A program made the position numbers and the translations under genes. 64,000 bases of DNA from Anaerolineae bacterium (lineage in GTDB: Bacteria; Chloroflexota; Anaerolineae; Anaerolineales; UBA4823). This document shows, piece after piece, positions 41,148-61,356 of the stretch. The first letter of the stretch is position 1; the number at the start of each line of letters is the position of its first letter. Below the pieces are notes generated by a model. The model searched no databases, was not told the DNA's origin, and saw only the letters and a program-made list of their open reading frames with translations. The DNA is taken from assembly GCA_003327455.1 (NCBI GenBank), contig QOQU01000004.1, positions 390,042 through 454,041 on the forward strand, written 5' to 3'.

Positions 41148-41447
41148 ATGCGTAAGATCATAGTGGCGTTTGGTTTACTCTCAGGCATTGTGTTGTTGCT
41201 GCTCGCCTGTAGCACACCTGCCTCGCCTCCACCCTCCCAGGAACAAGACCCGCTCACTGCAGTGGCGACGGCTGTGTTCACGCCTACCTCAACAGCCGCT
41301 ACAAGTGAGCAAATCGTTGAGCTTGAACCCACTCAGGTAGCCGCTGCTCAAGACGCCTGTGTCGCCTGTCATAGCGATAAACAACGCATCACCGACACAG
41401 CCAAACCCGAAGAGGATACAGAAAGCGAATCAAAAGGGGTTGGCTGA
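41148..41447 (+). CDS. Monoheme lipoprotein ORF, possibly the N-terminal part of the following cytochrome
   Basis: Lipobox LLLLACSTP, a P/S/T linker and one CVACH motif. It ends at the TGA at 41445-41447, in the same frame as the next ORF. Confidence 0.55.
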   Translation: MRKIIVAFGLLSGIVLLLLACSTPASPPPSQEQDPLTAVATAVFTPTSTAATSEQIVELEPTQVAAAQDACVACHSDKQRITDTAKPEEDTESESKGVG

Positions 41448-41456
41448 GGGGGCTCG

Positions 41457-42605: not shown

Positions 42606-42651
42606 ATGGGAGTTTTGAGTGGTAAACCTTAAAACTTATTGCAGGAGAAGA

Positions 42652-43758
42652 ATGAAAATGAAAATCCACAAAATTCTAACAATATTGGTTCTAATCAGTT
42701 TCTTGCTCGGAGCCTGCTCGTCTGCCGCTCCTACGGAAGCCCCGCCGGTCGAGACTCAGGCACCTGTGGTCACGGAAGCTCCACCGCCGACCCCAACTCC
42801 CGAACCACCCACACCCACGCCAGAGCCCCCCACTCCAACGCCTGAGCCGGAGGTGGATGAGTTCGCTGTCGTAGCAGCCTATATCAGCGAAAAGTACGCT
42901 AATTGGACGCCGGTCATCACCGCCGATAAGCTCTTCGAGAACCTGACCGACGGCGATGATACCAACAACCCCTTCATCATTGACGTGCGCAAGCCCGAAG
43001 ACTATGCCAAAGGGCATATTCAAGGGGCGGTCAACGTCTTCTGGAATGAGATTATCAAACCCGAAGTGCTGGCAGCTCTGCCGAAAGATCGCCTGATCGT
43101 CACCTATTGCTACACCGGGCATACCGGTGAGGCTGCAGCGACCATCCTCCATCTGCTTGGCTACAACGTCACCAACCTGAAGTACGGCATGATGGGTTGG
43201 ACTGCCAACGAGGAAGTGGTCGGCCAGCCCGGTTTCAAGGGTGGTGCCGGCTATCAGGTGGAAACCGAACCCCACGAACTGCCCGAAGCAGAAGTCACCC
43301 CACCCACCTTCAAGACCGGACAGAAAGAACCTGTTGACATCATCCTGGCTCGTGCTCAGGAACTGCTCGCCAAGTGGACGCCGGTTGTCACGGCTGATAA
43401 ACTGTTCGAAAACCTTGCCGATGGAGACGATGCCAACAATCCCTTTATCATCGATGTTCGCAAGCCCGAAGATTACGCTCGCGGCCACGTGCCCGGTGCG
43501 GTCAATGTCTTCTGGACCGGGATTGCTGCTCCAGAAGTCCTGGCAAAACTGCCCACTGACCGCCAGATTGTGACCTATTGCTACACGGGTCACACCGGGG
43601 AAGCCGCGGCGGTGGCTTTGATGCTGCTCGGCTATGATGTCACCAACCTCAAGTTTGCCATCATGGGTTGGACAGATAATGAGGAGGTGGTCGGGCAACC
43701 GATCTTCACCGGCGCAGCGGATTACGCAGTTGATACCGAACCGGTCGCCTTTCCATAA
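42652..43758 (+). CDS. Lipoprotein with two tandem rhodanese domains
   Basis: Lipobox FLLGACSS and linker (PPTPTPE)x3. Two roughly 75%-identical modules each contain IIDVRKPEDYA.GH..GAVNV and the Cys loop VTYCYTGHTGEAAA. Confidence 0.85.
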   Translation: MKMKIHKILTILVLISFLLGACSSAAPTEAPPVETQAPVVTEAPPPTPTPEPPTPTPEPPTPTPEPEVDEFAVVAAYISEKYANWTPVITADKLFENLTDGDDTNNPFIIDVRKPEDYAKGHIQGAVNVFWNEIIKPEVLAALPKDRLIVTYCYTGHTGEAAATILHLLGYNVTNLKYGMMGWTANEEVVGQPGFKGGAGYQVETEPHELPEAEVTPPTFKTGQKEPVDIILARAQELLAKWTPVVTADKLFENLADGDDANNPFIIDVRKPEDYARGHVPGAVNVFWTGIAAPEVLAKLPTDRQIVTYCYTGHTGEAAAVALMLLGYDVTNLKFAIMGWTDNEEVVGQPIFTGAADYAVDTEPVAFP

Positions 43759-44760: not shown

Positions 44761-45762
44761 TCAAGACGGGTTGTCATCTGGTGACAGCGTGCTATCTTTT
44801 TGAAGTTCAGAGATCACCATCTTAGCCGTCTCGGTGTCGGTGATCAGGCAATCGCACAGCTTACCTCTGATCGCTCCTACGATAGCCTCGACTTTATAAG
44901 ATCCAGCAGCAATGATAACAAGATAGGGGATTTTTAGAATATCCTCCCATTCAAGGGATATGATCCGATTTTCCCAAGGAGTTGAGATGTTGTTCCCGTC
45001 AATGTCATAATATCTCATTAAGATCTCTCCAACTGCCCCTTTTTCTCTAAGGTTGTCGATCTCTTGACGGGGTAATAAACCAACCTTGAGAAGGGTTGTA
45101 TCAGGGCCAAGATGTCCCAGCCCGGTATAGGCAATGTCACAATTTTTTGCTTCATTAAGAGCTTGAACAATTCTTGGTTCATGGAGAATAGCATTCCGGG
45201 TAGATTCGCTTTCTACCAAAACCGGAACGGCCAAAGTTTCGAGTTTTGCATGGTACATTTGGGCAACTAACCAACTGATTGTATAAGGATTTGTCTGCCC
45301 AAGCATCGTGCCAGCCAGATCACAGACCGTGAAAGGCACATTTTTTTTATAAGGCCGCAAGTAGTGGGATATTTTCGACACTGTTGTGCTCCATCCCATG
45401 CCTAAACGGATTCCTTTACGAATATTCCTCATTAAATGCTCTGCCCCTGCGTTTCCTACAGCTTCGAGCGTTTCCTCCATTGTTCGACGCGTTTGAACAA
45501 TAATGGCCTCTTTTAATTTTGAGAGCTTACATAATTTATTTTGCAGCTCAAATTCCTCTGGCAAGGGGCGGGTGAGCGTGAATTGAATAATGCCTTCCTT
45601 CCGCGCCTTCTGGATCAATCGGGTCACTTTTACTCTAGATATCCCAAATCTATTTGCGATTTGATCATGGGTTAATCCTTCGTAATAATATAACCATGCG
45701 GCAATTGTTGCCATCTTTTCTTGATCGGAATGCAAGGAAGAATCAGAATATTTCATATCCAT
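44761..45762 (-). CDS. SorC-family sugar-binding transcriptional regulator
   Basis: HTH MATIAAWLYYYEGLTHDQIANRFGISRVKVTRLI plus a SorC sugar-binding domain (IIAAGSYKVEAIVGAI). Confidence 0.88.
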   Translation of the reverse strand: MDMKYSDSSLHSDQEKMATIAAWLYYYEGLTHDQIANRFGISRVKVTRLIQKARKEGIIQFTLTRPLPEEFELQNKLCKLSKLKEAIIVQTRRTMEETLEAVGNAGAEHLMRNIRKGIRLGMGWSTTVSKISHYLRPYKKNVPFTVCDLAGTMLGQTNPYTISWLVAQMYHAKLETLAVPVLVESESTRNAILHEPRIVQALNEAKNCDIAYTGLGHLGPDTTLLKVGLLPRQEIDNLREKGAVGEILMRYYDIDGNNISTPWENRIISLEWEDILKIPYLVIIAAGSYKVEAIVGAIRGKLCDCLITDTETAKMVISELQKDSTLSPDDNPS

Positions 45763-46928
45763 TAGATTATTTGTTCTAAAGCGAGTTGAGCTCCCGATAA
45801 TGCCTTGCGAGGAGAGACTTCGCCAATGAAAGCTGAGTATATCGCGGGATAAAGGACCCCCAAAATTTTACCCAATTTCGGGGTTGATGGTAGAGTACTA
45901 CATCGCTGAAGCATTTTCATTTGAGTCTTCAGCCAGGCATATCGTTTGAAGTTAGTCTCTGTATAGGTGCTATTACGGACCGGACTACCAGCTAACTCGA
46001 GAACCTTTTGATCGATTGCTTGCCAGGCTATGGAGAGCAGGTGTTCTGTGGTTTGAGTTATTAAGGAGGCGGGTTGGTTGGCAGGTATGCCAATTCCCCA
46101 TGTGGCGTTCCATGGGGTGGAATACAAGGCAGTGGAATACCTCATCGCAGCCCCCTCTGCATATATGGGAGCTGCCTGTCCTCCCCATGTCGGGGCGATA
46201 CAGACCAAACTGGCACGCAGAACCGCAGCGATCTCATTGTTTCCAAAGCGATGGGTCTCCGGTGGACAGAATTGGCGGAGGTTACAATATACCTCAAGAG
46301 CAGAAACACTTGCGTCGCTATAGATAATTGGTTTTGATTCATTGTCCAGTACATCTCCCCCAAAATCCCAGAGAAAAGGTAACCAATCCAAAAAAATTTC
46401 ACTGGGTGAAGCCTTCAGGGCCAATCCGTATAAAGAGGGAGGATGGTGTACACTGGCTACAAGTTGCTCGAGGTTCTTGGGAGATATAAATGGAATTTCT
46501 TCTTCCGTCTCGACTTCAAGATGAATTTTATCCTTAAGATAAAAAAGGATATGTCCATCTGTAAAAAAAGGGATTAAGAACCATTCTTCTTCATAGAAAC
46601 ATTCCGAACGCACCTTTGGAAAGACATCATCCAGATTGAACTGGGATAATAATTCGGATGAGACTCTCTGGACAGGTAGAGGAGCAACTTTTTTTTCTTC
46701 AACCAATGTAGATAACCAAACATGACCTGGAATGAAAACAGCTTGAAAGGGAGATTGAGATTGGTTTAGTGCGTCATTCAGAGTGTTTTGATAGTTGTCC
46801 CAGGGAACAATCGTCAGGTGGAGGTTCGCTCCTGGATGTGTCTTTATATATTCGCTTAATGCTTCCAATGCCGGATCATCAGGCCCAAGGATGTGAAAAA
46901 TCATTTCTTGCTCCTTCGAGTGAATCAA
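45762..46928 (-). CDS. MalE-fold (family 1 solute-binding-protein-like) protein without a signal peptide
   Basis: 388 aa. HLTIVPWDNYQNTLNDAL, FFTDGHILFYLKD, LDWLPFLWDFGGDV and TPWNATWGIGIPAN resemble SBP_bac_1/8. The N-terminus MIHSKEQEMIFHILGPDD has no hydrophobic leader or lipobox. Confidence 0.65.
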   Translation of the reverse strand: MIHSKEQEMIFHILGPDDPALEALSEYIKTHPGANLHLTIVPWDNYQNTLNDALNQSQSPFQAVFIPGHVWLSTLVEEKKVAPLPVQRVSSELLSQFNLDDVFPKVRSECFYEEEWFLIPFFTDGHILFYLKDKIHLEVETEEEIPFISPKNLEQLVASVHHPPSLYGLALKASPSEIFLDWLPFLWDFGGDVLDNESKPIIYSDASVSALEVYCNLRQFCPPETHRFGNNEIAAVLRASLVCIAPTWGGQAAPIYAEGAAMRYSTALYSTPWNATWGIGIPANQPASLITQTTEHLLSIAWQAIDQKVLELAGSPVRNSTYTETNFKRYAWLKTQMKMLQRCSTLPSTPKLGKILGVLYPAIYSAFIGEVSPRKALSGAQLALEQII

Positions 46929-48076
46929 TTACACCATGCATATTTACAAACCAGATCGCGAAAGATACGGCTACTTTCGATCAAATCCCGGCCATGACGG
47001 TGGAGATCTCCACCAATTAAAAGCACAACATCCCTCCCATAAAACTCAACCAACTCATGGATGACTTGCAATTTCATACCGCCGGCGGGAGCGGGGAAAA
47101 TGGGCTTAATGTTTGCCATCGGGTCACTGGCACCCTTAATGATCTCCTTACACTCATCCTTTGAAAATGAGAACCGTCCCCCATAATTTGGAAAAATCAC
47201 AATATCTGCACCAGCCAATCGAGCCAATTGTCCAAAGAGGGCGTAGTGCGAGATGCCACTGTTGGGATTGGTTACAAAACTACCCAGAAAAGAGGGATGA
47301 AGTAGAATTGGTAGAGAAAGCTCTGGATCATTGGCCAGTTCTTGTACATGATCAAAACCGACGATCCCGGCTGAGATCAACAACCCTCCAGCACCTGCGT
47401 TCTTAGCGTAATACGCTCTTTCTCGAAGCTCAATTGTTGGAGCAGTGACATTCGGCACATAAATCGCATGTTCACCTGTTTCCCGGTTCGCTTTTTGAAT
47501 CGCTTCAACACAACGAGAAACCCTATCCTTGAAGGGAGAAAAAGGCTGGTTAGCGATGCCGTGATCGTCTTTGATAATATCAATACCTCCTCTAGCAAAC
47601 TGGTAGACGAGGTTGGCTAAATCCTGGTTGGACAATCCCATGGGTTTGACAGCTGTGCAAAGTAACGGACGATTATGAATATTCAATAGCTCCCGAATCC
47701 CGGCAATACCGTAGCGAGGGCCGGTAAACAGGTGATGAAGTTGTGAGGAAAGATTGATTCTTTCTACTCGAATCCCCGGTTTCAGACTAATATTGCCAAA
47801 AATGACATTCAGGAATTGGGTTATTTCATTAGATGCAATTTCCTCCGCAAAACTAATCTCAACTTCATAGCCAAGCGGGGTTTCTGTGAATCTTTCGATC
47901 CTCCCAAAGATGTGTCTTCGGATATCATCGTCAGGAACCAGGTCTGCAGGGAACTCAACGGTTTGTTCGATGCAAATATCTTCGGCTTTTCGATAAGCCT
48001 CGTCACGATCACCACTCAGGGAATAAACTATCGAAAAACGGTTTCCGCTAAGTTGCAACTGTGTCGGTGACAACAT
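46925..48076 (-). CDS. Form IV RuBisCO-like protein (RLP)
   Basis: 383 aa with large-subunit landmarks: TAVKPMGLS (KPK position), GGIDIIKDDHG (carbamyl-Lys/metal site), APAGGM and LLIGGDLH (phosphate-binding Gly pairs). Several RuBP-specific residues are replaced, so it is not a carboxylase. Confidence 0.88.
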   Translation of the reverse strand: MLSPTQLQLSGNRFSIVYSLSGDRDEAYRKAEDICIEQTVEFPADLVPDDDIRRHIFGRIERFTETPLGYEVEISFAEEIASNEITQFLNVIFGNISLKPGIRVERINLSSQLHHLFTGPRYGIAGIRELLNIHNRPLLCTAVKPMGLSNQDLANLVYQFARGGIDIIKDDHGIANQPFSPFKDRVSRCVEAIQKANRETGEHAIYVPNVTAPTIELRERAYYAKNAGAGGLLISAGIVGFDHVQELANDPELSLPILLHPSFLGSFVTNPNSGISHYALFGQLARLAGADIVIFPNYGGRFSFSKDECKEIIKGASDPMANIKPIFPAPAGGMKLQVIHELVEFYGRDVVLLIGGDLHRHGRDLIESSRIFRDLVCKYAWCN

Positions 48077-49083
48077 CAGAGCGCCTCTGCCTTAGATTCG
48101 CTATGAATTGGTTCTATACGTACTTCTTTTAATTCTTCTTCATCAACACCAAGTGAATTCCCAATCAGGCTCTCAATGTGACGGATCAGAGACATTGCAT
48201 CGATTTCATAGTATCTCATTAGATAGGGGCGGCTTCCGCCGTGGGCAAAAGTATCCTTCAGTCCAATGCGGATCAGGCGTTTATTTAGACCGCTTTCGGC
48301 AAGCGCCTCTGCAACTTCGCTCCCAAGTCCACCAATGATGGTGTGATTTTCCATCGTGATGACACCATATTTGACTTGTGAAGCGACTTCCACAATCTCT
48401 TTCTGGTTGAAGGGTTTATGGGTGGAGATATGTAAATGCGAGATTGAAATGCCTCTGGTTTGTAGTACCTGGGTGGCTCGCATTGCTTCCTCCGTGCAAA
48501 TTCCACTGGAAAAAAGAGCAATATCATTGCCGGTCGAAAGTACCCTTGCCTTGCCAATTTTGAGTGGTTCTGAAGGAGGAAAAAGGCGAGGGATCTCACC
48601 TCGTAATTGTCTAACATAAACCGGCCCGGGGATTTCATGGATTGCCTCAAAAATGCTTTCGACTTCTGTTGCATCGCCTGTTTCAAGAACAGTCATATTC
48701 GGGATAGCGCGTAAGATGGCGATATCGTCAATTGCCTGGTGGGTAGCTCCGCCAGGGGTAGTTATGCCCGGTAAAAAGCCAAATATCCTAACCGGTAGAT
48801 TTGGATAGGCTACCGAGATCGTGATCTGATCCAATGCCCTGCGGTAGAGGAACACAGCGAACGTATGAACAAAAGGAGTATAACCCTCCCTCGCCATACC
48901 GCCAGCAACGCTCATCATATTTTGTTCAGTCATACCAAAGGAGAAAAAACGTTCGGGGTAGGCATCTCGGAACAGCTCGATCTCGGTTGAGCTAGTGAGG
49001 TCAGCCGAGAAGACAACAACGTATGGTTTGTCTTTTGCCCATTCGACCAGTTTTCTAGCATGAACTTTTGATTCGATTCGCAT
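48076..49083 (-). CDS. Transketolase, C-terminal (pyrimidine-binding) subunit
   Basis: 335 aa: FSADLTSST...FFSFGMTEQNMMSVAGGMA..G..PFV.TFAVF is the split transketolase B-chain pattern. Confidence 0.9.
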   Translation of the reverse strand: MRIESKVHARKLVEWAKDKPYVVVFSADLTSSTEIELFRDAYPERFFSFGMTEQNMMSVAGGMAREGYTPFVHTFAVFLYRRALDQITISVAYPNLPVRIFGFLPGITTPGGATHQAIDDIAILRAIPNMTVLETGDATEVESIFEAIHEIPGPVYVRQLRGEIPRLFPPSEPLKIGKARVLSTGNDIALFSSGICTEEAMRATQVLQTRGISISHLHISTHKPFNQKEIVEVASQVKYGVITMENHTIIGGLGSEVAEALAESGLNKRLIRIGLKDTFAHGGSRPYLMRYYEIDAMSLIRHIESLIGNSLGVDEEELKEVRIEPIHSESKAEAL

Positions 49084-49085
49084 AT

Positions 49086-50009
49086 TTATCCTTCCTGAAG
49101 CTTATGGAGATAATCTTGGTAACGCTGACGCTCACTCTCATCTCGAAAACGGATGTAATGAAGTTTTGGAGCCCTTTCTTCAAGTAGAGGAATACCTTGA
49201 CAGGGATTTGTCCGAGCAATGACGAATAGCGGACGTCCATCCGGCGTTTCCTCGGCTGGGGCAGCCAGAGCTTCGACGTCATGGCCTTCTACTTCGTATA
49301 CCCGAGCTCCAAAAGCCTTTAATCTTTCTTGTAATGGCTCAACATTCATGACCTTTTGGATCTCCCCATCTGCAGATTGGCCATTTGCATCAATATACAC
49401 TCCTACTGTATCCAACTTATAGAAAGATAAGGTTTCAACAGCTTCCCATGTTTGTCCAATCTGAAATTCTCCATCGGACATAAAAACCCAATTTCTCCCG
49501 GTGTGACCTTTAAGCCGCCTGGCGAGTGCAATACCAACAACCTGACTGAGTGCCTGCCCTAAGGAACCAGCCATGATCTCGTGACCGGGAGAATGTTCAG
49601 CACCGATCATTTCCACTGTACTGCCATCTTTGTTGAACATATCCAAACCTTCTGGAGCCATCCGGCCAAGTTCTACTAAAAGAGCATAGAGAGCCAGAGC
49701 ACAATGAACAGGTGAAATAAAGAACCGATCAAACTCCGGGAGCTTTGGACCGTTATAGGCAGCGCCAGTGAAATAGTTGCGGTTCGTCCTACCAGGAGTA
49801 CCGGGAAATGGCGGGGGAATTAAAGGCGCTTCGCTTCGCCCTAGCTTCATAATCTTTACATATAAAGTGGCTAAGATCTCTGCCGAAGAGCAAGCTTGAC
49901 TGAGGTAACCACCATTATTTCGGATTGTAAAATCCAGGACCCTTTTTCGAATTCCATGTGCTACTCGTTGTGCCTGTTCCTGCCAACTCTCAGTGTTGAT
50001 ATTTGTCAT
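49086..50009 (-). CDS. Transketolase, N-terminal (TPP-binding) subunit
   Basis: 307 aa: GGYLSQACSSAEIL, HSPGHEIMAGSLGQALS, and the TPP motif FMSDGEFQIGQTWEA...IDANGQS. Confidence 0.9.
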   Translation of the reverse strand: MTNINTESWQEQAQRVAHGIRKRVLDFTIRNNGGYLSQACSSAEILATLYVKIMKLGRSEAPLIPPPFPGTPGRTNRNYFTGAAYNGPKLPEFDRFFISPVHCALALYALLVELGRMAPEGLDMFNKDGSTVEMIGAEHSPGHEIMAGSLGQALSQVVGIALARRLKGHTGRNWVFMSDGEFQIGQTWEAVETLSFYKLDTVGVYIDANGQSADGEIQKVMNVEPLQERLKAFGARVYEVEGHDVEALAAPAEETPDGRPLFVIARTNPCQGIPLLEERAPKLHYIRFRDESERQRYQDYLHKLQEG

Positions 50010-51073
50010 TAGATTGCTCCTGATAGTGTTTTTTTCATCAAATGAGCCAGGCTTTCCTCATATGGAGGATACGCAACCCCCACTTCCGTTATGATCGCCG
50101 TAATGTATCTGGCAGGGGTGACATCGAAGGCATAGTTCAGCACAGGAGAGCCATCAGGGACGATCTGTTCGTCCCCAACATGGGTGATCTCATCAGGGGA
50201 ACGCTCCTCTATCGGAATGGCTTCGCCGTCAGGAATACTCAGATCAATTGTGCTGGTCGGTGCGGCAACATAAAAGGGAACGCCGTGTTCTTTGGCAACA
50301 ATGGCGAGATTATAGGTCCCAATTTTGTTGGCAGTGTCGCCGTTGGCAGCGATTCGGTCGGCGCCAACCACACACAAATCAATCCCTACTTTCTTCATCA
50401 CATAGCCAGATGCGCCATCTACAATAACCGTATGCGGAATACCCAATTGGTTTAACTCCCACGCAGAAAGTCTGGCCCCCTGTAATCTGGGTCGGGTTTC
50501 GTCTAGATAGGCATGAACTCGTTTGCCTTTTTCGTGCGCAATGCGGATAATCCCCAACGCAGTACCGTAATCAACGGTAGCCAGACTGCCGGTATTGCAG
50601 TGATGCAGAATTTTCGCCCCATCGGGGATTAAGGGATCTGCATTGTATCCAATTTGCTTGTTGGCGCGAATATCCTCTTCGGCGATCTCATGTGCCTCAG
50701 ATAGAACAATTTTACGGAGGGCCGGAATATCCTGGGGATTTTCCCGGTTGACCTTTTTTAAGACCCGTTCGATTGCCCAGGCCAGATTCACAGCGGTGGG
50801 ACGTGATTGACGGAGGACTTCGGCGGCTTTCGTCAGGTCTTCCTTGAGTGCCTCTACTCTCGAAGCCGAAGATTGGTTGCAAGCCAGCGCTAAACCATAA
50901 GCTGCAGCAGCGCCGATCGCTGGCGCGCCGCGAACGATCATGCTTTTGATGGCTTCGGCGACTTGATGGTAATCAGTTAGCTCCAGGTATGCAACTTCCT
51001 TCGGTAACTTTCTTTGGTCAATCAGCCAGAGTGCGTCATTCTTCCATTCAATGCTTCTAAAGGTAGTTGTCAT
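50009..51073 (-). CDS. mtnA: S-methyl-5-thioribose-1-phosphate isomerase family (eIF-2B alpha/beta/delta-like)
   Basis: 354 aa: VRGAPAIGAAAAYG, HCNTGSLATVDYGTALG, and VGADRIAANGDTANKIGTY, the family signature. Confidence 0.9.
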   Translation of the reverse strand: MTTTFRSIEWKNDALWLIDQRKLPKEVAYLELTDYHQVAEAIKSMIVRGAPAIGAAAAYGLALACNQSSASRVEALKEDLTKAAEVLRQSRPTAVNLAWAIERVLKKVNRENPQDIPALRKIVLSEAHEIAEEDIRANKQIGYNADPLIPDGAKILHHCNTGSLATVDYGTALGIIRIAHEKGKRVHAYLDETRPRLQGARLSAWELNQLGIPHTVIVDGASGYVMKKVGIDLCVVGADRIAANGDTANKIGTYNLAIVAKEHGVPFYVAAPTSTIDLSIPDGEAIPIEERSPDEITHVGDEQIVPDGSPVLNYAFDVTPARYITAIITEVGVAYPPYEESLAHLMKKTLSGAI

Positions 51074-51111
51074 GGGAAACCTCCAAATAAAGCAATTGAC
51101 AAGGGCTGTAG

Positions 51112-52341
51112 TTATATAAATGGATAACTGGACTTTGATTCCAGCATCATCTCAACAGCCTCATCGATCGAGAATACTTTCCGACGATTCTTAAGCCAAT
51201 TCACCGCTATATTGATGCCAATGCTTTCACTGATTGCGCGGATTTCCTCATTATCAATAGTCCAAAAATCGTGAACATGTGCCATGCCGATTAATCTTCG
51301 TAACATTTCGGCAGCTCCAAACCCAAGCGTTTCCTGGAGTAGTTGTTGAATGTATTTCTTGCGGAATGAGGGAGAAGGCCAGTCATCGTTCCCCTCATTC
51401 TCCCATAAGGTTAGAAATTCGTTTTCGAACACACGCCACGTATCTTTGACTAATTGAGCGAGCCAAAGGCGATACTCCTTACGCACCGTTTCATCCCTGG
51501 CATGAAATTCCTGCGAAGCATAAGAGAGGGCAAGATTAGCAATATAAGAACCTATATCATGGGCAATCGGGCCGAAGAATGCAAATTCTGGATCGACTAC
51601 TTTTGTTTCGTGCTCATTGAGCATAATCGAACCCGTGTGGAGATCGTTATGGATTAATGCTTGAGCATGGGTCATATAAAGTTCTTTCAACTCAAAGATT
51701 TCACTGCGTAAATCGTCATCTTGATGAATCTGGCGCACTTGCGGTTCTAATAATTTGCTCCAGCGATTGTTGGGGTGATCCATATATGGTTGAGTGAAGA
51801 CAAGGTCTTCTTGAACCTTACACAGGACAGGATTGATAAACTTTGGAACCATCGCCTTTTTTTCGCCAGAACTCAAATACAAATCGCTGGTATAGAATAA
51901 TGTTCGAGCCATAAACGTCCCGATATGGTTGGCTACCAGCGGATAACGAATTTGCTTCATCAAACCTTCGCGCATAACTAAATGCTGGTTCAAATCTTCG
52001 ATGATTAAGATGTGTTTTTCTTCGTCAAAGTGGTAGATTTCCGGCACTTGTTGAGGACAGTAACGGCCTTCGATCGTCAGGACCTCATACTCAATCCGAG
52101 AACGATCGAGGGGCATTTTAAAATCAGGATAACGCCATGCATAAGGTAAAGCCTGCTTAACAATCACCGATTTATGGATGGGATCATGCTCAGAACTTAC
52201 TCGAAAAAGAAGATTAACATTTCCCTCGGCAATCTGCTGACTTTTCAAGTCGTCGTTCCCATCAAAAATATGGCTAAAGACCGAGGTTTGCTTGATATAG
52301 TCAATAACAGTTTGTTCGTTTAGAGCTTGTGAATCAGTCAT
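51112..52341 (-). CDS. mtnK: 5-methylthioribose kinase family
   Basis: 409 aa: EGNVNLLFRV, VKQALPYAWRYPDFKMPLDRSRIE and the catalytic loop LIHNDLHTGSIM, the MtnK/APH-fold pattern. Confidence 0.88.
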   Translation of the reverse strand: MTDSQALNEQTVIDYIKQTSVFSHIFDGNDDLKSQQIAEGNVNLLFRVSSEHDPIHKSVIVKQALPYAWRYPDFKMPLDRSRIEYEVLTIEGRYCPQQVPEIYHFDEEKHILIIEDLNQHLVMREGLMKQIRYPLVANHIGTFMARTLFYTSDLYLSSGEKKAMVPKFINPVLCKVQEDLVFTQPYMDHPNNRWSKLLEPQVRQIHQDDDLRSEIFELKELYMTHAQALIHNDLHTGSIMLNEHETKVVDPEFAFFGPIAHDIGSYIANLALSYASQEFHARDETVRKEYRLWLAQLVKDTWRVFENEFLTLWENEGNDDWPSPSFRKKYIQQLLQETLGFGAAEMLRRLIGMAHVHDFWTIDNEEIRAISESIGINIAVNWLKNRRKVFSIDEAVEMMLESKSSYPFI

Positions 52342-52370
52342 GGCTAACCATCCTTTTGCTATAAAGTGAT

Positions 52371-53447
52371 TTATCGCCGAGTTGTGTAATAACTTAGTCC
52401 GAGTGAGACAATCAAGACCAGACCTTTAATCACGTCTTGAATGTACCAGGGGATATTCATCATTGTTAATCCGTTCAGCATCACACCCACAAAAATAGCT
52501 CCAAGCACCGTACCAAATACATTCGGGCGACGAGCGTTCAACACAGCAAACCCAAAGTAAGTGGCTGCTACACCATCTAATAGATAAGGGTCACCTGCCT
52601 TAACGGCCCCAGAGCCGATCCTGGCGGCCAGAACTAATCCACCAATCGTAGCCAGAACCGCACTGATAATATAGGCAATCGTTCGGATCAGATTCACATT
52701 GATACCAGCCAGTCTTGCCGCTTCATAATTGCCACCGACAGCATAAAAAATTCTTCCATATCGTGTCAGTTCTAAGAAGATGAATGCCAAGATGGCAACG
52801 ACCAACATGATAATCACCGGGACTGGAATACCGCGGAAATTTTCGGAACTGAAAACAAAACCTTGCCCAAACTTCAAGAAGATCGGTGAAATTACACCAT
52901 CCGCAATTGCTCGTTCCTGGCTCCAGGGATTCGTCATGCCCTTATAGACCGCATCGCCTTTCGTAATGCTCATTTGCAGCCCTTGAACGAGATAGAGCAT
53001 TCCCAAAGTCGCTAACAGATCGGGGATACGGAATTTGACAATTAGAACTGAGTTCAAATAACCAATTACAGCCCCTGCCGAAAGACTGATGAGAACAGCA
53101 AAATACCAGGGGATTTTCCAGATGACCATCAAGGCAGGCGCAAGGATTACAGCTAACCCGGTGACGGCTCCAACGGATACATCGAAACCGTTGACGACAA
53201 CAGAAAAGGTAACACCTAAGGCAACAATCGTCAGAATCGAAACTGCCCGTAGAATGTCAAGTAAGTTATCAATGGATGCAAAGGCTGTAGTTTTGACCGA
53301 AAAGAAGAGTGAAACGATGATCAGGGTAAGAATTAATCCATATCTTAAAAATAAATCTGAGAAAGAGATTAAGTAGCGAGCGTTTGAATCCGACTGTTTG
53401 AATTCTACTTTTGAGTCCTTCTCTACAACTGAATTGGGGGATGACAT
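52371..53447 (-). CDS. CUT2-family sugar ABC permease (RbsC-like)
   Basis: 358 aa with about 10 TM helices and AVGGNYEAARLAGINV, the conserved CUT2 permease loop. Confidence 0.88.
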   Translation of the reverse strand: MSSPNSVVEKDSKVEFKQSDSNARYLISFSDLFLRYGLILTLIIVSLFFSVKTTAFASIDNLLDILRAVSILTIVALGVTFSVVVNGFDVSVGAVTGLAVILAPALMVIWKIPWYFAVLISLSAGAVIGYLNSVLIVKFRIPDLLATLGMLYLVQGLQMSITKGDAVYKGMTNPWSQERAIADGVISPIFLKFGQGFVFSSENFRGIPVPVIIMLVVAILAFIFLELTRYGRIFYAVGGNYEAARLAGINVNLIRTIAYIISAVLATIGGLVLAARIGSGAVKAGDPYLLDGVAATYFGFAVLNARRPNVFGTVLGAIFVGVMLNGLTMMNIPWYIQDVIKGLVLIVSLGLSYYTTRR

Positions 53448-53450
53448 AAA

Positions 53451-54983
53451 CTACACTCCTGATTGTTGGTGATTCAAATTTGCGACTGGGTTAGCTGCGC
53501 CTGTAGTAATTTCCATAACCGTTTGGCGGTTGACTTGATCTGCATTGAATTCAGCCACAATATACCCATCCCTCATTACCAAGACGCGGTCCGCTAAACC
53601 GAGCACCTCATCCACATCGGAGGATGCGAAAATCACGCCGGCTGTTTGAGAAAGATTTCGAGCCATGGCATATATATCTCGTTTTGCTCCGATATCGATT
53701 CCTTGGGTCGCTTCATCAAAGATAATGACTTTCGGTTGTTTTCCCAGCCATTTTCCAACGACGACTTTCTGCTGGTTTCCCCCACTCAGATTTCTGACAG
53801 GCATATTTGGTTTACGAGGAACCAAATTTACTTTATCAATCAACTCCATGACATATTTTTTTTCTTTGCTGAGGGATACAAAACTCAAAGTACTCATAAG
53901 ATTGAGAAACGGTAAAGATATGTTCTTAAGCACGGTATCCTCGATGAAAAGACCGTGGTTCCGGCGATCTTCAGGGATCAGGTAGATGCCTTGCTCGATA
54001 GCGTCCTTGGGTTGATGAAAGATTACTTTTTTGCCGTCGAGGAAGATTTCCCCCGAATCGGGCTTTATCGAACCAAATAAAATGTGTAATAAGTCCGTTT
54101 TGCCTGCCCCCGTTTGACCGGTAATCCCTAAAATTTCCCCTTGATATAATTTGAAAGAAATATCCCATAAACGTCCTTTTTTTGATAATTTGACGACCTC
54201 CATCACGGTTTGATTTGGTAACCCTCCTGGTTTTTCGGGAAAGATTTCTTTTGGTGGAACGCCCAGCATGGCTTCAACTGCTTTACTGAGGTCGAATTCT
54301 CGACGAGTATAATAGGCAACTTTTTCTCCGTTGCGAAGTATCGTGACTTCATCAGCAAGCTCCTGGATTTCTCCCAAACGATGGGAAACGTAGAGAAAAC
54401 TTACCCCTTGTTCTTTCAAGCTTTTGATGATCCTGAATAATTGCTCAGCCTCGATTTGGCTCAGGGATGAGGTTGGTTCGTCTAGAATGACAAAAGATGC
54501 GCTGCGTGTTATGGCTCTGGCGATAACGAGTAATTGTTTTTGGGGGAGGGTTAGATCGGCTACAGGCTTAGACACATTAACATTGAGATTCACCTTCTGA
54601 ATCACCTCTTCTGCTTCTTTGAAAAGCGATTTCTTCTGTACGAATAAACCCATATTCGATGAAGCAATTTTTTCAATGAGGAGATTCTCAGCGACAGTGA
54701 GATATGGGATCAGGGTTGTGTCGACTTCCTGGTGAACCACTTCGATCCCGTAACGAAAAGCATCAGAAGGTTTACGAATGGAGATAACCCGTCCATCTAT
54801 TTCAATCCGACCTTCATAATCTGGATAATAGCCGGTCAGGATTTTAATCAAGGTGCTTTTACCTGCGCCATTTGCCCCAATCAGACCATGAATCTTGCCA
54901 CTCGACAAAGTCAAGTCTACGTTATTAAGGGCAAGAACGCCAGGAAATGTTTTTCGCAATCCAGTTGCAACTAAAGTTACCAT
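53451..54983 (-). CDS. CUT2-family sugar ABC ATPase with duplicated ABC domains (RbsA/MglA-like)
   Basis: 510 aa with Walker A GANGAGKST and GQTGAGKTD, and an LSGGNQQKVVVGKWL signature. Confidence 0.92.
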   Translation of the reverse strand: MVTLVATGLRKTFPGVLALNNVDLTLSSGKIHGLIGANGAGKSTLIKILTGYYPDYEGRIEIDGRVISIRKPSDAFRYGIEVVHQEVDTTLIPYLTVAENLLIEKIASSNMGLFVQKKSLFKEAEEVIQKVNLNVNVSKPVADLTLPQKQLLVIARAITRSASFVILDEPTSSLSQIEAEQLFRIIKSLKEQGVSFLYVSHRLGEIQELADEVTILRNGEKVAYYTRREFDLSKAVEAMLGVPPKEIFPEKPGGLPNQTVMEVVKLSKKGRLWDISFKLYQGEILGITGQTGAGKTDLLHILFGSIKPDSGEIFLDGKKVIFHQPKDAIEQGIYLIPEDRRNHGLFIEDTVLKNISLPFLNLMSTLSFVSLSKEKKYVMELIDKVNLVPRKPNMPVRNLSGGNQQKVVVGKWLGKQPKVIIFDEATQGIDIGAKRDIYAMARNLSQTAGVIFASSDVDEVLGLADRVLVMRDGYIVAEFNADQVNRQTVMEITTGAANPVANLNHQQSGV

Positions 54984-55057
54984 TCTCTCTCCACCATACA
55001 GAAGTCATCAACGAAGGGGTGTGGAGAGAGACACTCCACACCCCTTGTCTGAAACGA

Positions 55058-55369
55058 TTATTGTTGGACTAAGGTACACATCCAGGGGAACCAATTGAGG
55101 GAGGACTCGCCGAGAGCCGGCAGGGCTTTGATCAACTCGTCCATGTTGGTGATGTTGTTCTCAAGGAGGAACTGACGGGTGATCAACTCCGGGCGGACGA
55201 GCAGGTATTTATCCACTTTTTCGCCCGCAACAAGGGCAGCCGCGGTGCGAACAGCCAGACGACCAACGCTATAGGAGTCGGTCGCAACAGTAGCTTCCCA
55301 AGGACTGTCAGGCTGAATCATCAACTGGATATCTTCATTGGTAATGTCAACAGAATAAACCTTCAGTAT
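55058..55369 (-). pseudogene. C-terminal about 100-codon remnant of a CUT2 periplasmic sugar-binding protein (5' end missing)
   Basis: The open frame reads ILKVYSVDITNEDIQLMIQPDSPWEATVATDSYSVGRLAVRTAAALVAGEKV..., an RbsB-like C-terminal lobe. An in-frame TAA at 55370-55372 bounds it upstream. No signal peptide or N-lobe exists upstream, and the sequence changes to AT-rich island DNA. Confidence 0.7.
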
Positions 55370-55436
55370 TTAGGAATCGCTTAAATTTAGATTCGCTACC
55401 GTTCATTCTAATTATTATAATCAAATGAATGCTCGT

Positions 55437-55475
55437 GTAAAAATTAACACTGGGAATTTATAACATCCCAGTGTT
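55437..55475 (-). terminator. Rho-independent terminator ending the island operon
   Basis: Minus strand: AACACTGGGA-10 nt loop (contains the TAA stop)-TCCCAGTGTT (55446-55475), followed by AATTTTTTA. Confidence 0.8.
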
Positions 55476-56357
55476 TTTAAGCTCATCTTCAGACAGTTCC
55501 AGTTTACACACAAAACACCTGCCTACAGTTAAAAATTGCCCGCTCAGGTCGTCTTCCGATTCTGTATAAAGCTTAAGAACGCAAAAAGAAGCATTACCAC
55601 AGGCAGGACATTCCATACTGTCACGTACAATCTCCCTTTCATCATAGGAAGAACGGATGTTTATTTTTTTTCTTTCCTCAATTAATTCAGGATTTAGTTC
55701 GCTATATTCTTCCTTCTTTTCCCTTATTTTTTGGCTTAGGGTATCAGATTGCTGTCTTGTGAGTTCTTCTTCCTTTGCCTTAAGTTTCTCAAAAACAGTC
55801 TCATTAAAAATGTCTTCATATTTGTACGCATCAGATACTTCCTGAATCATTTCCCGAATAAAGGGTAATATTTCATTAAGAATAAACAAACCCTCATCTA
55901 CAGGGTTAAAATAATACTCGAAATAGTGGACAATATTGTTACGCATGTTGCCTAATCGAACTAGGGCCGCTTTTCTTCTGTCCCGCTCTTCGCGAATTCT
56001 TTTCAATTCGTGCTTATCCGTAACAGCCTCGTCCTCTTCAATGTTTAGATTAAACATCGCTTCGTATCGTGAAATAACTTCATTGTACGGAATGGTAAGA
56101 AAGGTCTCGCGCCTTTCTTTACGGGTCATAAGGTTTTGTCTCGACTGGATATTTTTAACTTTATCCTGAAGCTTCTTAAACCTGACCAGATGTTCTACAC
56201 TGTTATTTTTATCCAGCACCAGCACATCGTCAAGCTCACATAAACGCTGTTTCATAAGCCGCTCAACGGCCACAGCAAATAGTACAACCGACAGCTCAAA
56301 ATGCTCGCTGTCAATAAAATATCTCAGCGCTTCGGACAGGATAACCGAGGTGTGCAT
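55458..56357 (-). CDS. HEPN-like (Rx4H) protein with a coiled-coil and a C-terminal zinc ribbon
   Basis: 299 aa. R139-N-N-I-V-H144 (nt 55926-55943, CGTAACAATATTGTCCAC) sits in the context LVRLGNMRNNIVHYFEY. A K/E-rich helix spans residues 190-235. CPACG...CFVC lies at residues 250-284. Its ATG shares one nt with the hsdMS stop (TAATG at 56355-56359). Confidence 0.6.
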   Translation of the reverse strand: MHTSVILSEALRYFIDSEHFELSVVLFAVAVERLMKQRLCELDDVLVLDKNNSVEHLVRFKKLQDKVKNIQSRQNLMTRKERRETFLTIPYNEVISRYEAMFNLNIEEDEAVTDKHELKRIREERDRRKAALVRLGNMRNNIVHYFEYYFNPVDEGLFILNEILPFIREMIQEVSDAYKYEDIFNETVFEKLKAKEEELTRQQSDTLSQKIREKKEEYSELNPELIEERKKINIRSSYDEREIVRDSMECPACGNASFCVLKLYTESEDDLSGQFLTVGRCFVCKLELSEDELKNTGML

Positions 56358-59095
56358 TACTCTCCAAACACCTCCCTGTCCAGAATCATTTTTATGGTCT
56401 GTTTTGCGTTTTCCTTTAGCCTTCTGATATTGGTCAGCGTTTCAAACTGAACGTTAAGGAAATCCACTATTTTCTGCTGTTTTTCAATTGGAGGAAGCGG
56501 AACTTTAATATAACTTAAATCGGTTTGAGTTATTGATGGATATTGAGATTTTTCCATCAACTTAGTTAACTCAGATACGAATATATCAGATAGAACATAG
56601 AAGAATAAAAATCTAGGCAGTATTACTTCATTTTTGCTCCTTAATACAGCAAAACCTGTAGAACATATTTGGTTATTAAATCTCTCGTCATCAATTATAC
56701 AAAAACTCTTTAAGTTAGGCCGAACAGTAGAAATTAAAACATCGCCAATTTTTACAACTCGTCTTGCTCTACTTGGTGCATTCTTGCCACTAATAAACTT
56801 ATAATCAGTTATCGTGAAGGTTTTATTATCAACAGAAGAAATATCTATGTAGATAAACTCTTTTTCAGGCTCATTTTCGGGATTCATGCTTTCGGGATTA
56901 ATCTCTACGACATCTGGCAACTCCACCCATTCCCAATCTCCTTCAAAAATACTGTCGTCGATTCCAGCTTCAAGAATGGTCTTTTCCATAGCATTGCACT
57001 GCTCAATAATAGCCTGCTGCTTGTCCAAGCGGGCAACCAGTTCCTGTTGAACGGGAAGAGGTGGGAGAGGGATTTGAATATTGGCTAAATCATCAAATTT
57101 CAAAGTATCCCTAATACTTCCAGAAACTGCTTCATTGATTTTGTTCATCATCCAATCTGTTTTCAATAAATAATACAGAAATCTTGAATCTGTAGTTTTA
57201 CTATCTTTTACTTTAAATACTACATAAGCAGGGCTTACAAGACCTTTAACCACGTTATCAGCAAATCCTATAGAACCTATATTAATTCTGTAAGGATTAT
57301 AAACAAAGTAATCTTTATATATTATCTTATAGCTATTAAGGTTTTTAGCATATACTTCTTCGTTATTTCCATATACGTTTTCTTTAAAATAATCTTCTGC
57401 AGGAATTATCCCGAACTCTTTACTAACACTATAAACTGGCAATTCTTCGGAAAGCACATTTCTATCCGTAATTTGTTCAATGATTTCTCCCAGTCTAACA
57501 ATGTTATGTTTCCTACTTTGGCAGATCAAATTTTTATACAGCCCCGGGTTAAGGTTATAATTTTTTGCTTTGATTTCCTCAATCGTCGCCGCCCAGCAGA
57601 AATCATTATCTATAAAATCAGGCGGTTCCTTTGTTGGGTTATCAATCCAATCTATCCATCTTCTAAACACTTCCACCGCTTTAGGCAGGTTCCCACAAGG
57701 CGGTTCGTAAATGTTCGGGTCATCACCCTGGAAAGCTCCGTTAATTGGCCTTCTCTGGGTTGTTAAGGTAAATCCGTCATCTTTCACATCAACAAACAGC
57801 ACCTGCTTTGTGGTGTAAGCATTTTGTTTCTTTGTCTCGTTCCATTCTTCTTTTGTGGGTTTTTCAAAATACAGCACTGTCGTTTTGACACCGGAATACG
57901 GCTGAAAAATGCCTGCCGGCATGGAAAAGACAGCTTTCAAATCAAATTCGCGCAGGAGCTTCATGCGTATATTCTTGAATACAGAGGAATTGTCAAACAG
58001 AATCTTGTCCAAGATTATAACTACTGCCCTGGAACGTTTTTTACCTGGTTCAGAAGGTCTTAATGCCGCCATAATATGCTGGATGAACAATGCTTCGTAG
58101 CGTTTGGCATGGAACTCAAAAGTACCAACCCGCGACTGAGCAAGTGGACCATACGGTGGGTTAGTTAACACTACATCATACTTTTCTTTATGTTCTAACT
58201 GTGCTCGATTGTCTAAGCTGTCAGCCTCAAAGAGGTTGGATTTGCCGTCATTGTGCAATATCATATTCATGAGGGCAAGCTTGTAAACGTCTGGAGCCTT
58301 CTCCACAGCATAAAGAGACTCTTCCTTCAGTTTTCGGTAAAGCATTTCAGCTTCATCAAATTGAACCCCATTATATGCGGCAGTAGACTCGTTAACTCTC
58401 ATCCCCGCTTTTACAAGATTATCAATTTTACTCTTTACTACTTCGAAGGCACGCAGAATAAAGCCTCCCGTACCAGCCGCAGGGTCATATATTTTTTCCC
58501 CAATTTCCGGGTCAGCAAGTTCCACCATGAAATGAATGATGTGGCGAGGAGTAAAATACTGACCGTACTGTTTTTGTTCGCCAAGCTTTTGAACAACAAA
58601 TTCGTATGCTCTGCCCATAACGTCAAAATTTTGTTCAAGCTCAAGGTCTTTCAGCCGTTTTATCAATTCTTTAATGGTCGGGCTGTACCTTATACGCCAT
58701 ATATGATTTTTAAATAGCCGTCTGAAAAGGCTTAAATCCCTGCCATCGTGGTCCTTAACTTCGGCCAGTTCGGAAAATATGTTTCTAACATAATCGACTA
58801 TAGTAAACTCTCCATCGTCAGTCTTTACGGTTTTTCCGTCACTTGCCAAAATCTTTTCTGCCCATGTGGAAAACCTCAGGTGATTTGGTAAATCAGGCAC
58901 AAATTTAGTTCCATCCAAACGGGCGAGTTCTTCTCTTTGTTTTTCTCTCTCGTCAAAGAGCTTTAGAAACAAAAAATAGCTAAATTCTTCCAGATACTCG
59001 GTGGTTTTGAGAGTATCGTCTCGAAAAATATTGGCAATATCCCAAAGCTCAGAACCAAGCCTGTGAAAATCTACTTTGTTATTGTTTTGCGCCAT
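56357..59095 (-). CDS. Type I-like R-M methyltransferase fused to a two-TRD specificity subunit (HsdM-HsdS fusion)
   Basis: 912 aa. HsdM_N-like N-terminus, SAM motif I DPAAGTGGF and motif IV LTNPPYG. These are followed by two target-recognition domains, each ending in an HsdS conserved helix (IQIPLPPLPVQQELVARLD and IKVPLPPIEKQQKIVDFLN). Confidence 0.85.
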   Translation of the reverse strand: MAQNNNKVDFHRLGSELWDIANIFRDDTLKTTEYLEEFSYFLFLKLFDEREKQREELARLDGTKFVPDLPNHLRFSTWAEKILASDGKTVKTDDGEFTIVDYVRNIFSELAEVKDHDGRDLSLFRRLFKNHIWRIRYSPTIKELIKRLKDLELEQNFDVMGRAYEFVVQKLGEQKQYGQYFTPRHIIHFMVELADPEIGEKIYDPAAGTGGFILRAFEVVKSKIDNLVKAGMRVNESTAAYNGVQFDEAEMLYRKLKEESLYAVEKAPDVYKLALMNMILHNDGKSNLFEADSLDNRAQLEHKEKYDVVLTNPPYGPLAQSRVGTFEFHAKRYEALFIQHIMAALRPSEPGKKRSRAVVIILDKILFDNSSVFKNIRMKLLREFDLKAVFSMPAGIFQPYSGVKTTVLYFEKPTKEEWNETKKQNAYTTKQVLFVDVKDDGFTLTTQRRPINGAFQGDDPNIYEPPCGNLPKAVEVFRRWIDWIDNPTKEPPDFIDNDFCWAATIEEIKAKNYNLNPGLYKNLICQSRKHNIVRLGEIIEQITDRNVLSEELPVYSVSKEFGIIPAEDYFKENVYGNNEEVYAKNLNSYKIIYKDYFVYNPYRINIGSIGFADNVVKGLVSPAYVVFKVKDSKTTDSRFLYYLLKTDWMMNKINEAVSGSIRDTLKFDDLANIQIPLPPLPVQQELVARLDKQQAIIEQCNAMEKTILEAGIDDSIFEGDWEWVELPDVVEINPESMNPENEPEKEFIYIDISSVDNKTFTITDYKFISGKNAPSRARRVVKIGDVLISTVRPNLKSFCIIDDERFNNQICSTGFAVLRSKNEVILPRFLFFYVLSDIFVSELTKLMEKSQYPSITQTDLSYIKVPLPPIEKQQKIVDFLNVQFETLTNIRRLKENAKQTIKMILDREVFGE

Positions 59096-59109
59096 TAATA
59101 TTCCCTCCG

Positions 59110-61335: not shown

Positions 61336-61356
61336 TATTTTCCCTCCCCTCGATAA

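Follow-up and report, generated by a model that had tools for sequence, protein, structure and literature searches.

A stretch of 64,000 nucleotides (nt) from the genome of an Anaerolineae bacterium (Chloroflexota; contig QOQU01000004.1), referred to below as the window, contains on its minus strand, between positions 44761 and 55372, nine intact genes and one gene remnant that all run in the same direction. They encode a sugar importer of the ATP-binding cassette (ABC) type with the remnant of a substrate-binding protein (SBP), the kinase MtnK and the isomerase MtnA, a transketolase split into the subunits TktN and TktC, a form IV RuBisCO-like protein (RLP), a protein with the MalE fold and a SorC/DeoR regulator (Table 1). 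The ten co-directional genes listed in a preliminary description of this DNA, the SBP remnant included, were all recovered there. The operon is best explained as a catabolic or salvage route for the pentose by-products of S-adenosylmethionine (SAM) use, that is, as a transketolase variant of two known pathways, the isoprenoid shunt of 5'-methylthioadenosine (MTA) and the dihydroxyacetone phosphate (DHAP) shunt.

Table 1. Features of the operon and of the adjoining island, with window coordinates and the profile match or other evidence for each
Feature	Coordinates	Strand	Evidence
SorC/DeoR regulator	44761-45762	-	PF04198, 190 bits, and helix-turn-helix
MalE-fold (SBP_bac_1) protein	45762-46904 (likely ATG start at 46904)	-	PF01547, 37 bits
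Form IV RLP, DeepYkr type	46925-48076	-	PF00016 (RuBisCO_large), 135 bits
TktC, C-terminal transketolase subunit	48076-49083	-	PF02779 and PF02780 (Transket_pyr, Transketolase_C)
TktN, N-terminal transketolase subunit	49086-50009	-	PF00456 (Transketolase_N), 63 bits
MtnA, 5-methylthioribose-1-phosphate isomerase	50009-51073	-	TIGR00512, 446 bits (cut-off 279)
MtnK, 5-methylthioribose kinase	51112-52341	-	TIGR01767, 484 bits (cut-off 275)
RbsC-like ABC permease	52371-53447	-	PF02653 (BPD_transp_2), 117 bits
RbsA/XylG/AraG-like CUT2 ABC ATPase, two nucleotide-binding domains	53451-54983	-	PF00005 twice
RbsB-type binding-protein remnant	55058-55372	-	tblastn, E 4e-12
Promoter-like site TTTACA-16-TATAAT	55414-55441	-	11 of 12 positions
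HsdR	59110-61335		island; type I restriction-modification
AAA_25/HTH protein	61893-63920		island

The genes from mtnA to the regulator had been described as joined by overlaps of 1 to 4 nt or a gap of 2 nt, and most of these junctions stood: 1-nt overlaps were found at 50009, 48076 and 45762, and a 2-nt gap at 49084-85. The 4-nt overlap claimed at 46925-28, however, needs a TTG start of the MalE-fold gene. The start used by the homologues of this protein and by public gene calls is an ATG at 46904 with a GAAGGAG ribosome-binding site ahead of it, so that the RLP/MalE-fold junction is in fact a 20-nt spacer.

The two enzymes at the entry of the route were readily recognized, since both MtnK and MtnA scored above their equivalog cut-offs. 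The best solved relatives of MtnK are the A. thaliana 5-methylthioribose kinase 2pyw (E 3e-91) and B. subtilis MtnK 2olc (E 2e-77), and solved relatives of MtnA are 1t9k (E 2.5e-110) and 6a34. In the DHAP shunt, 5-deoxyribose is also accepted by the MtnK family. The best profile matches of the ATPase were the xylose, arabinose and ribose ATPases (413-447 bits, all sub-threshold), and the permease likewise stayed below the cut-off of the ribose permease model (176 bits). Loci from other genomes that carry relatives of the RLP are given here as L numbers; in L004 the ATPase and the permease have counterparts with 75% and 86% identity, respectively. The regulator gave sub-threshold matches to DeoR (176 bits) and LsrR (132 bits), and a SorC regulator occupies the same position in L004, L060, L076, L006 and L011. 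Two divergent MtnK/MtnA pairs, about 70% and about 40% identical to the window proteins, were observed in L003 and L027, and the clusters of Bacillota contain the divergent type only. These two types may separate methylthioribose from 5-deoxyribose specificity.

The RLP scored below every NCBIfam cut-off. Its best matches in this collection were two MtnW models (257 bits for a cut-off of 409, and 194 bits for a cut-off of 514), while the model of OiaX, the decarboxylase of the apiose pathway, gave 81 bits for a cut-off of 700. The closest solved structure was an RLP of R. palustris (3qfw, E 3.6e-75; 38% against 32% identity), as compared with E values of 3e-55 to 6e-46 for four MtnW-type structures and of 2e-39 for the Photo-clade RLPs. 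Furthermore, the motifs KDDH (at the metal site), GGRF, PAGG and IGG are common to the window protein and R. palustris RLP1, whereas MtnW carries KDDE, YGSV and PSAG. The motif alignment also showed that the carboxylase residues are replaced, as in form IV (K177 to M, E204 to H, R295 to P, H327 lost, K334 to R and S379 to A, in RuBisCO numbering). An MtnW enolase is ruled out by the sub-cut-off scores, the KDDH motif and the closer match to 3qfw, and an apiose-type protein by the OiaX score. Clustering with the MtnW enolases would have refuted the preliminary description, but the RLP does not group with them, because structure matches and motifs side with RLP1. The neighbour-joining tree of the RLPs included two outgroup sequences. 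R. palustris RLP1 isomerises 5-methylthioribulose 1-phosphate to 1-methylthioxylulose/ribulose 5-phosphate in vivo and in vitro (PMC5893883). The window RLP is of the same DeepYkr type and would act as a 5-methylthio (or 5-deoxy) ribulose-1-phosphate 1,3-isomerase.

The two transketolase subunits have their closest solved chains in a split transketolase (6yak for TktN, E 8e-34; 6yaj for TktC, E 4e-63). TktN keeps the SDG...N motif that binds thiamine diphosphate (ThDP) and Mg2+ (SDGEF...DANG) and a His near the end of the subunit; TktC keeps the cofactor-activating Glu (TEQN, GMTEQN) and the THQ His. Nevertheless, the curated cut-offs for transketolase and DXS were all missed, the transketolase models giving 149 and 208 bits against 488. 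Residues were compared by alignment to solved transketolases and to 45-50 family members. TktN has GGY for the canonical GH, VEMIGAEHSPG for GHP and an insertion of about 30 residues, all conserved in 45 family members, and TktC has GFLPGITTPGGATHQ in place of THAGLTVGEDGASHQ, conserved in 50 members. In E. coli numbering, His26, which in canonical enzymes contacts the donor substrate near C1-C3, is replaced by Tyr (Tyr35, GGYLSQACS), and His100, the contact of the donor C1-OH, by Met (within VEMIGAEHSPG). Within GFLPGITTPGGATHQ, the phosphate-binding His461 is replaced by Leu, together with a one-residue deletion, and Asp469, which binds the C4-OH, by Gly. A C-terminal tail is conserved in the family, and the TktC homologues are uniform (67-81% identity, about 335 residues). 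The changes of His to Tyr and of His to Met near C1 fit a substrate in which C1 bears SCH3 or H and no hydroxyl. In an exhaustive search, the Tyr-type signature extended to wider uncharacterised relatives, some of them devoid of the ThDP motif. Three of these N-subunit relatives (P0392, P0395 and P0399 in alignment A2), where GDG has given way to CAADEL, VDADEL and CDEKEF, respectively, may be pseudo-enzymes.

Conservation of the arrangement was analyzed in a scan with one genome per species, which gave 496 stretches with RLP relatives; the best 80, at 54-73% identity, were studied. These loci come from Chloroflexota, Nitrospirota, Bacillota, Acidobacteriota, Spirochaetota, Calditrichota, Pseudomonadota and one Asgard archaeon, and the cultured Bacillota carriers include Heliobacterium mobile, Heliophilum fasciatum, Sporotomaculum syntrophicum and Desulfosporosinus. 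Using tblastn and clustering of open reading frames (ORFs), we found TktN-TktC, or a fused form of 660-720 residues, directly upstream of the RLP in 58 of the 80 loci. The remaining loci had a 145-residue Cupin_2 protein by the RLP (10), were cut by a contig end (7) or had neither partner (5). A cupin-family hidden Markov model run on the small ORFs upstream of the RLP in the latter loci revealed no hidden divergent cupin and found only the 10 already known. Sampling from the transketolase side gave the same association, with the RLP directly following in four of four homologues. The whole gene order of the window was also present in L004, L060 and L076, from other Anaerolineae, and MtnA or MtnK-MtnA precede the transketolase-RLP pair in L023, L027, L035, L066, L080 and L084 (Chloroflexota, Bacillota and the Asgard archaeon). 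Because of this full order and of the TktN-TktC-RLP core in 58 loci, the arrangement is not due to chance, and it is not confined to this contig, which had been left as a point to be checked. In other phyla most transketolase-RLP pairs are isolated, with neither an importer nor a kinase beside them. The cluster of the Asgard (Promethearchaeota) bin (L023, 4580-10127) comprises MtnK-MtnA-TktN-TktC-RLP at 55-64% identity to the window proteins, which suggests inter-domain transfer or a binning error.

The cupin loci were informative about the function of the transketolase. The best solved relatives of the cupin are 3ibm and Rru_A2000 (3jzv), the latter of which is reported to be the 1-methylthioxylulose-5-phosphate methylsulfurylase of R. 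rubrum (the enzyme of Warlick et al. 2012). These loci often contain in addition a pyridoxal phosphate (PLP) enzyme of Cys/Met metabolism and a CoA-binding protein. In the neighbour-joining tree, cupin-linked and transketolase-linked RLPs interleave, L047 falling inside the cupin group of the Syntrophomonadaceae. No fixed difference between the two sets was detected at 90% consensus, and the active-site motifs are all identical. The simplest reading of these alignments would be one RLP function with two alternative downstream enzymes. Since the two RLP sets interleave and show no fixed difference, the transketolase most likely replaces the cupin; with one function and two alternative partners, it would consume the RLP product. 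Gene identities, RLP subtype, conservation and the alternation of transketolase and cupin are established here.

Other genes that accompany the RLP in related loci fit the conversion of a 1-substituted pentulose 5-phosphate to glyceraldehyde 3-phosphate and a C2 aldehyde or acyl unit. The gene directly after that of the RLP codes for glyceraldehyde-3-phosphate dehydrogenase (GAPDH) in L054 and L059. L027 and L080 encode a ribulose-phosphate 3-epimerase (237 bits, cut-off 213) and an LsrF-type thiolase (408 bits, cut-off 297), and a Zn alcohol dehydrogenase is present in both as well as in L038. The known substrate of LsrF is a 5-phosphate derived from a 1-deoxy-pentose. The three genes were seen after the RLP at 11127-13893 in L027 and at 11207 to about 14500 in L080, the thiolase being of the 3-hydroxy-5-phosphonooxypentane-2,4-dione type. 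This suggests a parallel branch in which the 1-substituted pentulose 5-phosphate is oxidised and then cleaved thiolytically to DHAP and acyl-CoA. Two Anaerolinea loci, L062 (3993-7660) and L074 (3909-7803), carry a microcompartment gene set similar to SPU6 directly upstream of TktN-TktC-RLP and on the same strand; it consists of three EutN pentamer genes, one BMC-H, one CcmP-like BMC-T and an acylating aldehyde dehydrogenase. A deoxyribose-phosphate aldolase was not found in these two loci by tblastn with a weak probe, an E. coli DeoC sequence. It is possible that the RLP/transketolase pair forms a new set of signature enzymes for a metabolosome.

The route that we propose combines these elements, and we give it a probability of about 0.6: MtnK, MtnA and the RLP isomerase would be followed by a ThDP-dependent cleavage between C2 and C3 that yields glyceraldehyde 3-phosphate and a C2 fragment. 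Free 5-methylthioribose and/or 5-deoxyribose would be taken up by the CUT2 ABC importer, phosphorylated at C1 by MtnK and isomerised to the ribulose 1-phosphate by MtnA. By shifting the carbonyl (1,3-isomerisation), the DeepYkr RLP would form 1-methylthio-xylulose/ribulose 5-phosphate or, from 5-deoxyribose, 1-deoxyxylulose 5-phosphate (DXP). The split ThDP enzyme would then break C2-C3, releasing glyceraldehyde 3-phosphate and leaving a ThDP-bound C2 fragment. This fragment might be set free as an aldehyde, either acetaldehyde or 2-methylthioacetaldehyde; it might lose methanethiol and so become acetyl-ThDP, from which acetate or acetyl phosphate would form; or it might be handed to an acceptor. 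The SorC regulator would sense a sugar phosphate of the pathway. We infer from the genes all substrates and products from the RLP step onward, as well as the sugar that is truly imported. The same order of steps had been put forward in the preliminary description, and the comparative context, with orthologous RLPs that pair with either a cupin or a transketolase, favours it. Rather than as a gene set that matches no canonical pathway, the route is better seen as the MTA-isoprenoid shunt in a variant form that keeps the RLP and exchanges the second enzyme.

A more far-reaching version can be put forward tentatively. Here the ThDP enzyme would cleave 1-methylthioxylulose 5-phosphate (and DXP), and the C2-ThDP adduct would expel methanethiol in a phosphoketolase-like manner to give an acetyl unit. 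In anaerobes (Chloroflexota, Nitrospirota, Bacillota with the heliobacteria, and Asgard archaea) the RLP product would most commonly be consumed through this RLP-ThDP module, which in some lineages would be housed in a microcompartment, and the MalE-fold protein would serve as a novel accessory enzyme or sensor. If so, a single enzyme, needing neither oxygen nor glutathione, would bring all the carbon of methylthioribose, as well as its sulfur, back into central metabolism.

Several observations weigh against the proposed route. The main internal argument, as read from the alignments, is the change at the distal end of the transketolase site: the loss of the phosphate-binding His (to Leu) and of the C4-OH-binding Asp (to Gly), with a one-residue deletion, would be unexpected, because the glyceraldehyde 3-phosphate half of the substrate should match that of xylulose 5-phosphate. 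The Gly/Thr-rich replacement loop may bind the phosphate differently, or the true substrate may differ from the proposed one. In addition, the identity between the window RLP and the characterised RLP1 is no more than 38%, and the activities assigned to the RLP and transketolase clades are predictions from the genes. The GAPDH, alcohol dehydrogenase, epimerase, LsrF and microcompartment genes each occur in 2-3 loci only and none in the window. Sugar uptake is perhaps impaired, since the importer is here without its binding protein.

The distal-end changes would be explained if the transketolase acted on the ribulose 1-phosphate, or on another sugar phosphate, instead of the RLP product: Leu, Pro and Gly at the phosphate and C4-OH sites would suit the methylthio or methyl end of 5-methylthioribulose 1-phosphate. 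The RLP would then perform a different step, for example on the product of the transketolase, or as an enolase or decarboxylase, still within a two-step module. The position of the transketolase gene, ahead of the RLP at every locus, agrees with this order. However, orthologous RLPs with no fixed difference pair with a cupin that uses the RLP product in the known shunt, other phosphate-binding residues of the transketolase (Arg and Ser in the motifs RGE...R and ADLTSS) appear to be kept, and the presence of an LsrF-type thiolase and GAPDH in related loci is a sign of pentuloses of the 5-phosphorylated 1-deoxy or 1-thio kind and of glyceraldehyde 3-phosphate. We consider this order of reactions unlikely.

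It is also quite improbable that the true sugar is another imported 5-modified or unusual pentose, for which MtnK- and MtnA-like enzymes were recruited as in the D-apiose routes. A sugar ABC importer with a SorC regulator is typical of carbohydrate catabolism, the two divergent MtnK/MtnA pairs of L003 and L027 imply sub-specialisation, and the MalE-fold protein suggests a ligand not yet recognized. Yet MtnK and MtnA lie far above their curated equivalog cut-offs, and the RLP is remote from the OiaX model. The stand-alone transketolase-RLP pairs of other phyla are as expected for the housekeeping salvage of an internally made compound, and the Cys/Met PLP enzyme beside the cupin-linked orthologues points to sulfur salvage. 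Least of all can the operon be accounted for by classical Bacillus-type methionine salvage, with the RLP as MtnW, with MtnB, MtnX and MtnD encoded elsewhere and with the transketolase as an unrelated enzyme of the pentose phosphate pathway. Although the two MtnW models are the best NCBIfam matches of the RLP, the scores are far too low, the metal site reads KDDH and not KDDE, YGSV and PSAG are missing, and 3qfw is closer than the four MtnW-type structures. Moreover, the transketolase is reciprocally linked to the RLP across phyla and is without the canonical transketolase residues, and the window encodes no MtnB-like protein of the class II aldolase family (MtnX and MtnD were not probed).

SAM chemistry leaves MTA and 5'-deoxyadenosine as by-products that every cell has to clear. 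Bacteria are known to do so in three ways: by the classical oxygen-dependent pathway, by the MTA-isoprenoid shunt or by the DHAP shunt. The route proposed here has the RLP subfamily and MtnA in common with the MTA-isoprenoid shunt of R. rubrum and R. palustris (MtnP, MtnA, DeepYkr RLP and cupin). The entry differs, with an MTA phosphorylase there and MtnK acting on the free imported sugar here. A homologue of the cupin adjoins orthologues of the window RLP in 10 of the 80 loci, but the window has the split ThDP enzyme instead. Carbon goes to DXP for isoprenoids in the shunt and would here go to glyceraldehyde 3-phosphate and a C2 unit. The DHAP shunt (MtnK or MtnP, MtnA and the class II aldolase Ald2; DrdK/DrdI/DrdA for 5-deoxyribose) starts with the same two enzymes and follows the same logic, in that a ribulose 1-phosphate is converted to a triose phosphate and a C2 aldehyde; the net products proposed here are nearly equivalent. 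The shunt, however, uses a class II aldolase and yields DHAP, whereas the present route would need the RLP and then the ThDP enzyme, and would yield glyceraldehyde 3-phosphate. In E. coli the DHAP shunt allows growth on 5'-deoxynucleosides (PMC10441430).

The absence of a cupin and of a class II aldolase, reported at the outset, holds for the whole window, which is equally devoid of O-acetylhomoserine sulfhydrylase, LsrF, epimerase, Zn alcohol dehydrogenase and GAPDH. For the classical salvage genes, the earlier claim of absence was borne out in the window for MtnB-like proteins; MtnX and MtnD are missing from the operon, no probe for either having been run on the whole window. Bacillus-type salvage (MtnK, MtnA, MtnB, MtnW, MtnX, MtnD) likewise clusters MtnK and MtnA with a form IV RLP, but its RLP is MtnW, the models and motifs of which the present protein fails. 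The D-apiose routes, with an RLP decarboxylase/transcarboxylase and the apulose-4-phosphate transketolase AptA/AptB, similarly cluster a form IV RLP with a split transketolase; their RLP subfamily is another, their kinase and isomerase differ, as had been noted, and the operon is without apiose-specific genes.

The split ThDP enzyme shares with canonical transketolase, DXP synthase and phosphoketolase the fold, the SDG...N motif, the activating Glu and the THQ His, its closest structure being the split transketolase of Carboxydothermus. It departs from canonical transketolase by the replaced equivalents of His26, His100, His461 and Asp469, by the insertion in the N subunit and by the C-terminal tail. 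Formally, the proposed cleavage runs the second half-reaction of DXP synthase backwards, and it would be phosphoketolase-like if methanethiol were eliminated. In the SPU microcompartment, deoxyribose-5-phosphate aldolase forms glyceraldehyde 3-phosphate and acetaldehyde (PMC11585597). These products match the glyceraldehyde 3-phosphate and aldehyde proposed here, and SPU6-like genes directly precede the transketolase-RLP pair in L062 and L074; the association is, however, restricted to one Anaerolinea group, and the window has no shell genes.

Taken together, the route joins known entry steps and a known RLP to a second enzyme that is new; the module is widespread, and the route is apparently undescribed. 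Searchable full text yielded no literature in which, for methylthioribose or 5-deoxyribose, a transketolase is connected to an RLP, a passing mention in subscription papers being possible, and a field review of 2026 names the cupin alone as the enzyme for 1-methylthioxylulose 5-phosphate. The comparative data point to a fourth arrangement, in which the product of a RuBisCO-like isomerase passes to a dedicated ThDP enzyme of non-canonical type. In the set of close RLP relatives this version is far commoner than the characterised one with the cupin (58 versus 10 of 80 loci), and it occurs across many anaerobic phyla, with cultured heliobacteria and syntrophs among the carriers. If the proposal is true, it would give a function to a large family annotated just as transketolase, add a reaction to the transketolase superfamily and widen the functional map of the RuBisCO-like proteins. 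It would also explain how the abundant Chloroflexota of sediments and bioreactors could scavenge methylthioribose or 5-deoxyribose for carbon and sulfur.

The MalE-fold protein was modeled with AlphaFold2 at a pLDDT of 94.3, and Foldseek aligned the model with MalE-type sugar-binding proteins (MalE3, 5iai and others) at TM scores of 0.83-0.88 and 13-18% identity. Its family comprises 112 protein clusters of about 380 residues (about 370-390), nearly all from Chloroflexota. Neither a signal peptide nor a hydrophobic N terminus was present in nine aligned homologues, and the wider family has no signal peptide either, because its lengths leave no room for one. The gene always lies in these clusters, after that of the RLP or of MtnA. 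We rejected the protein as the missing binding protein of the importer: the importer is of the CUT2 and not the CUT1 type, a signal peptide is lacking, and L082 carries both proteins. It is not the partner of the importer, because the CUT2 importer has its own RbsB-type binding protein. The protein belongs to the system, with sensor, carrier or enzyme among its possible roles. An ORF of 313 residues in L081 (P0232, 8001-8942) with IF-2B (MtnA-like) and SBP_bac_1 matches lies outside any pathway context; being isolated, it was discarded as uninformative about an MtnA fusion, and it is probably a decayed fusion remnant.

In L060 and L076, the closest relatives of the operon, a tandem RbsB-type periplasmic sugar-binding lipoprotein gene precedes the ATPase gene. 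The preliminary description was right about its remnant in the window. Only the last 104 or so residues are left there, at least about 270 of the first codons being gone. With the intact binding proteins of related loci as tblastn queries, residues of about 268-372 matched positions 55070-55366. Direct reading of the remnant gave KVYSVDITNEDI...WMCTLVQQ and then a stop, with about 70% identity to the C terminus of the L060 and L076 binding proteins. An ORF of 88 codons in the remnant had no Pfam match.

Upstream of the remnant begins a low-GC island (55458-63920; GC 0.38-0.43, compared with 0.45-0.57 elsewhere), of which 55458-61335 is a type I restriction-modification part. Besides HsdR and the AAA_25/HTH protein, the island encodes a 299-residue protein and one of 912 residues whose sequence, judged by reading and with no profile search, resembles that of a type I restriction subunit in which methylase and specificity parts are fused. 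Insertion of this mobile island cut the binding-protein gene of the importer, since only the C-terminal remnant is left and the low-GC restriction-modification block lies directly upstream; the far end of the island and the lost 5' part of the gene lie beyond the window. The TTTACA-16-TATAAT sequence at the exact island/remnant junction is the best-scoring promoter-like site of the region, where the total of such sites is no more than expected by chance, and this predicted promoter may now drive the operon.

Two further gene groups of the window were recorded. Between 24874 and 36407, a second SorC/DeoR regulator (32170-33135) stands with a set of pyruvate dehydrogenase-like E1 alpha, E1 beta and E2 genes (28768-32166), near a DRL_cat/SAF oxidoreductase (24874-26214) and an SsuA-family ABC importer (33821-36407). 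This region looks like another regulated catabolic cluster with a ThDP enzyme. Downstream of the operon, positions 36907-43758 encode multihaem cytochromes c, an NrfD-type membrane protein, a 4Fe-4S ferredoxin-like protein, a LysR regulator and a double rhodanese protein, a stretch that as a whole is unrelated to the operon finding.

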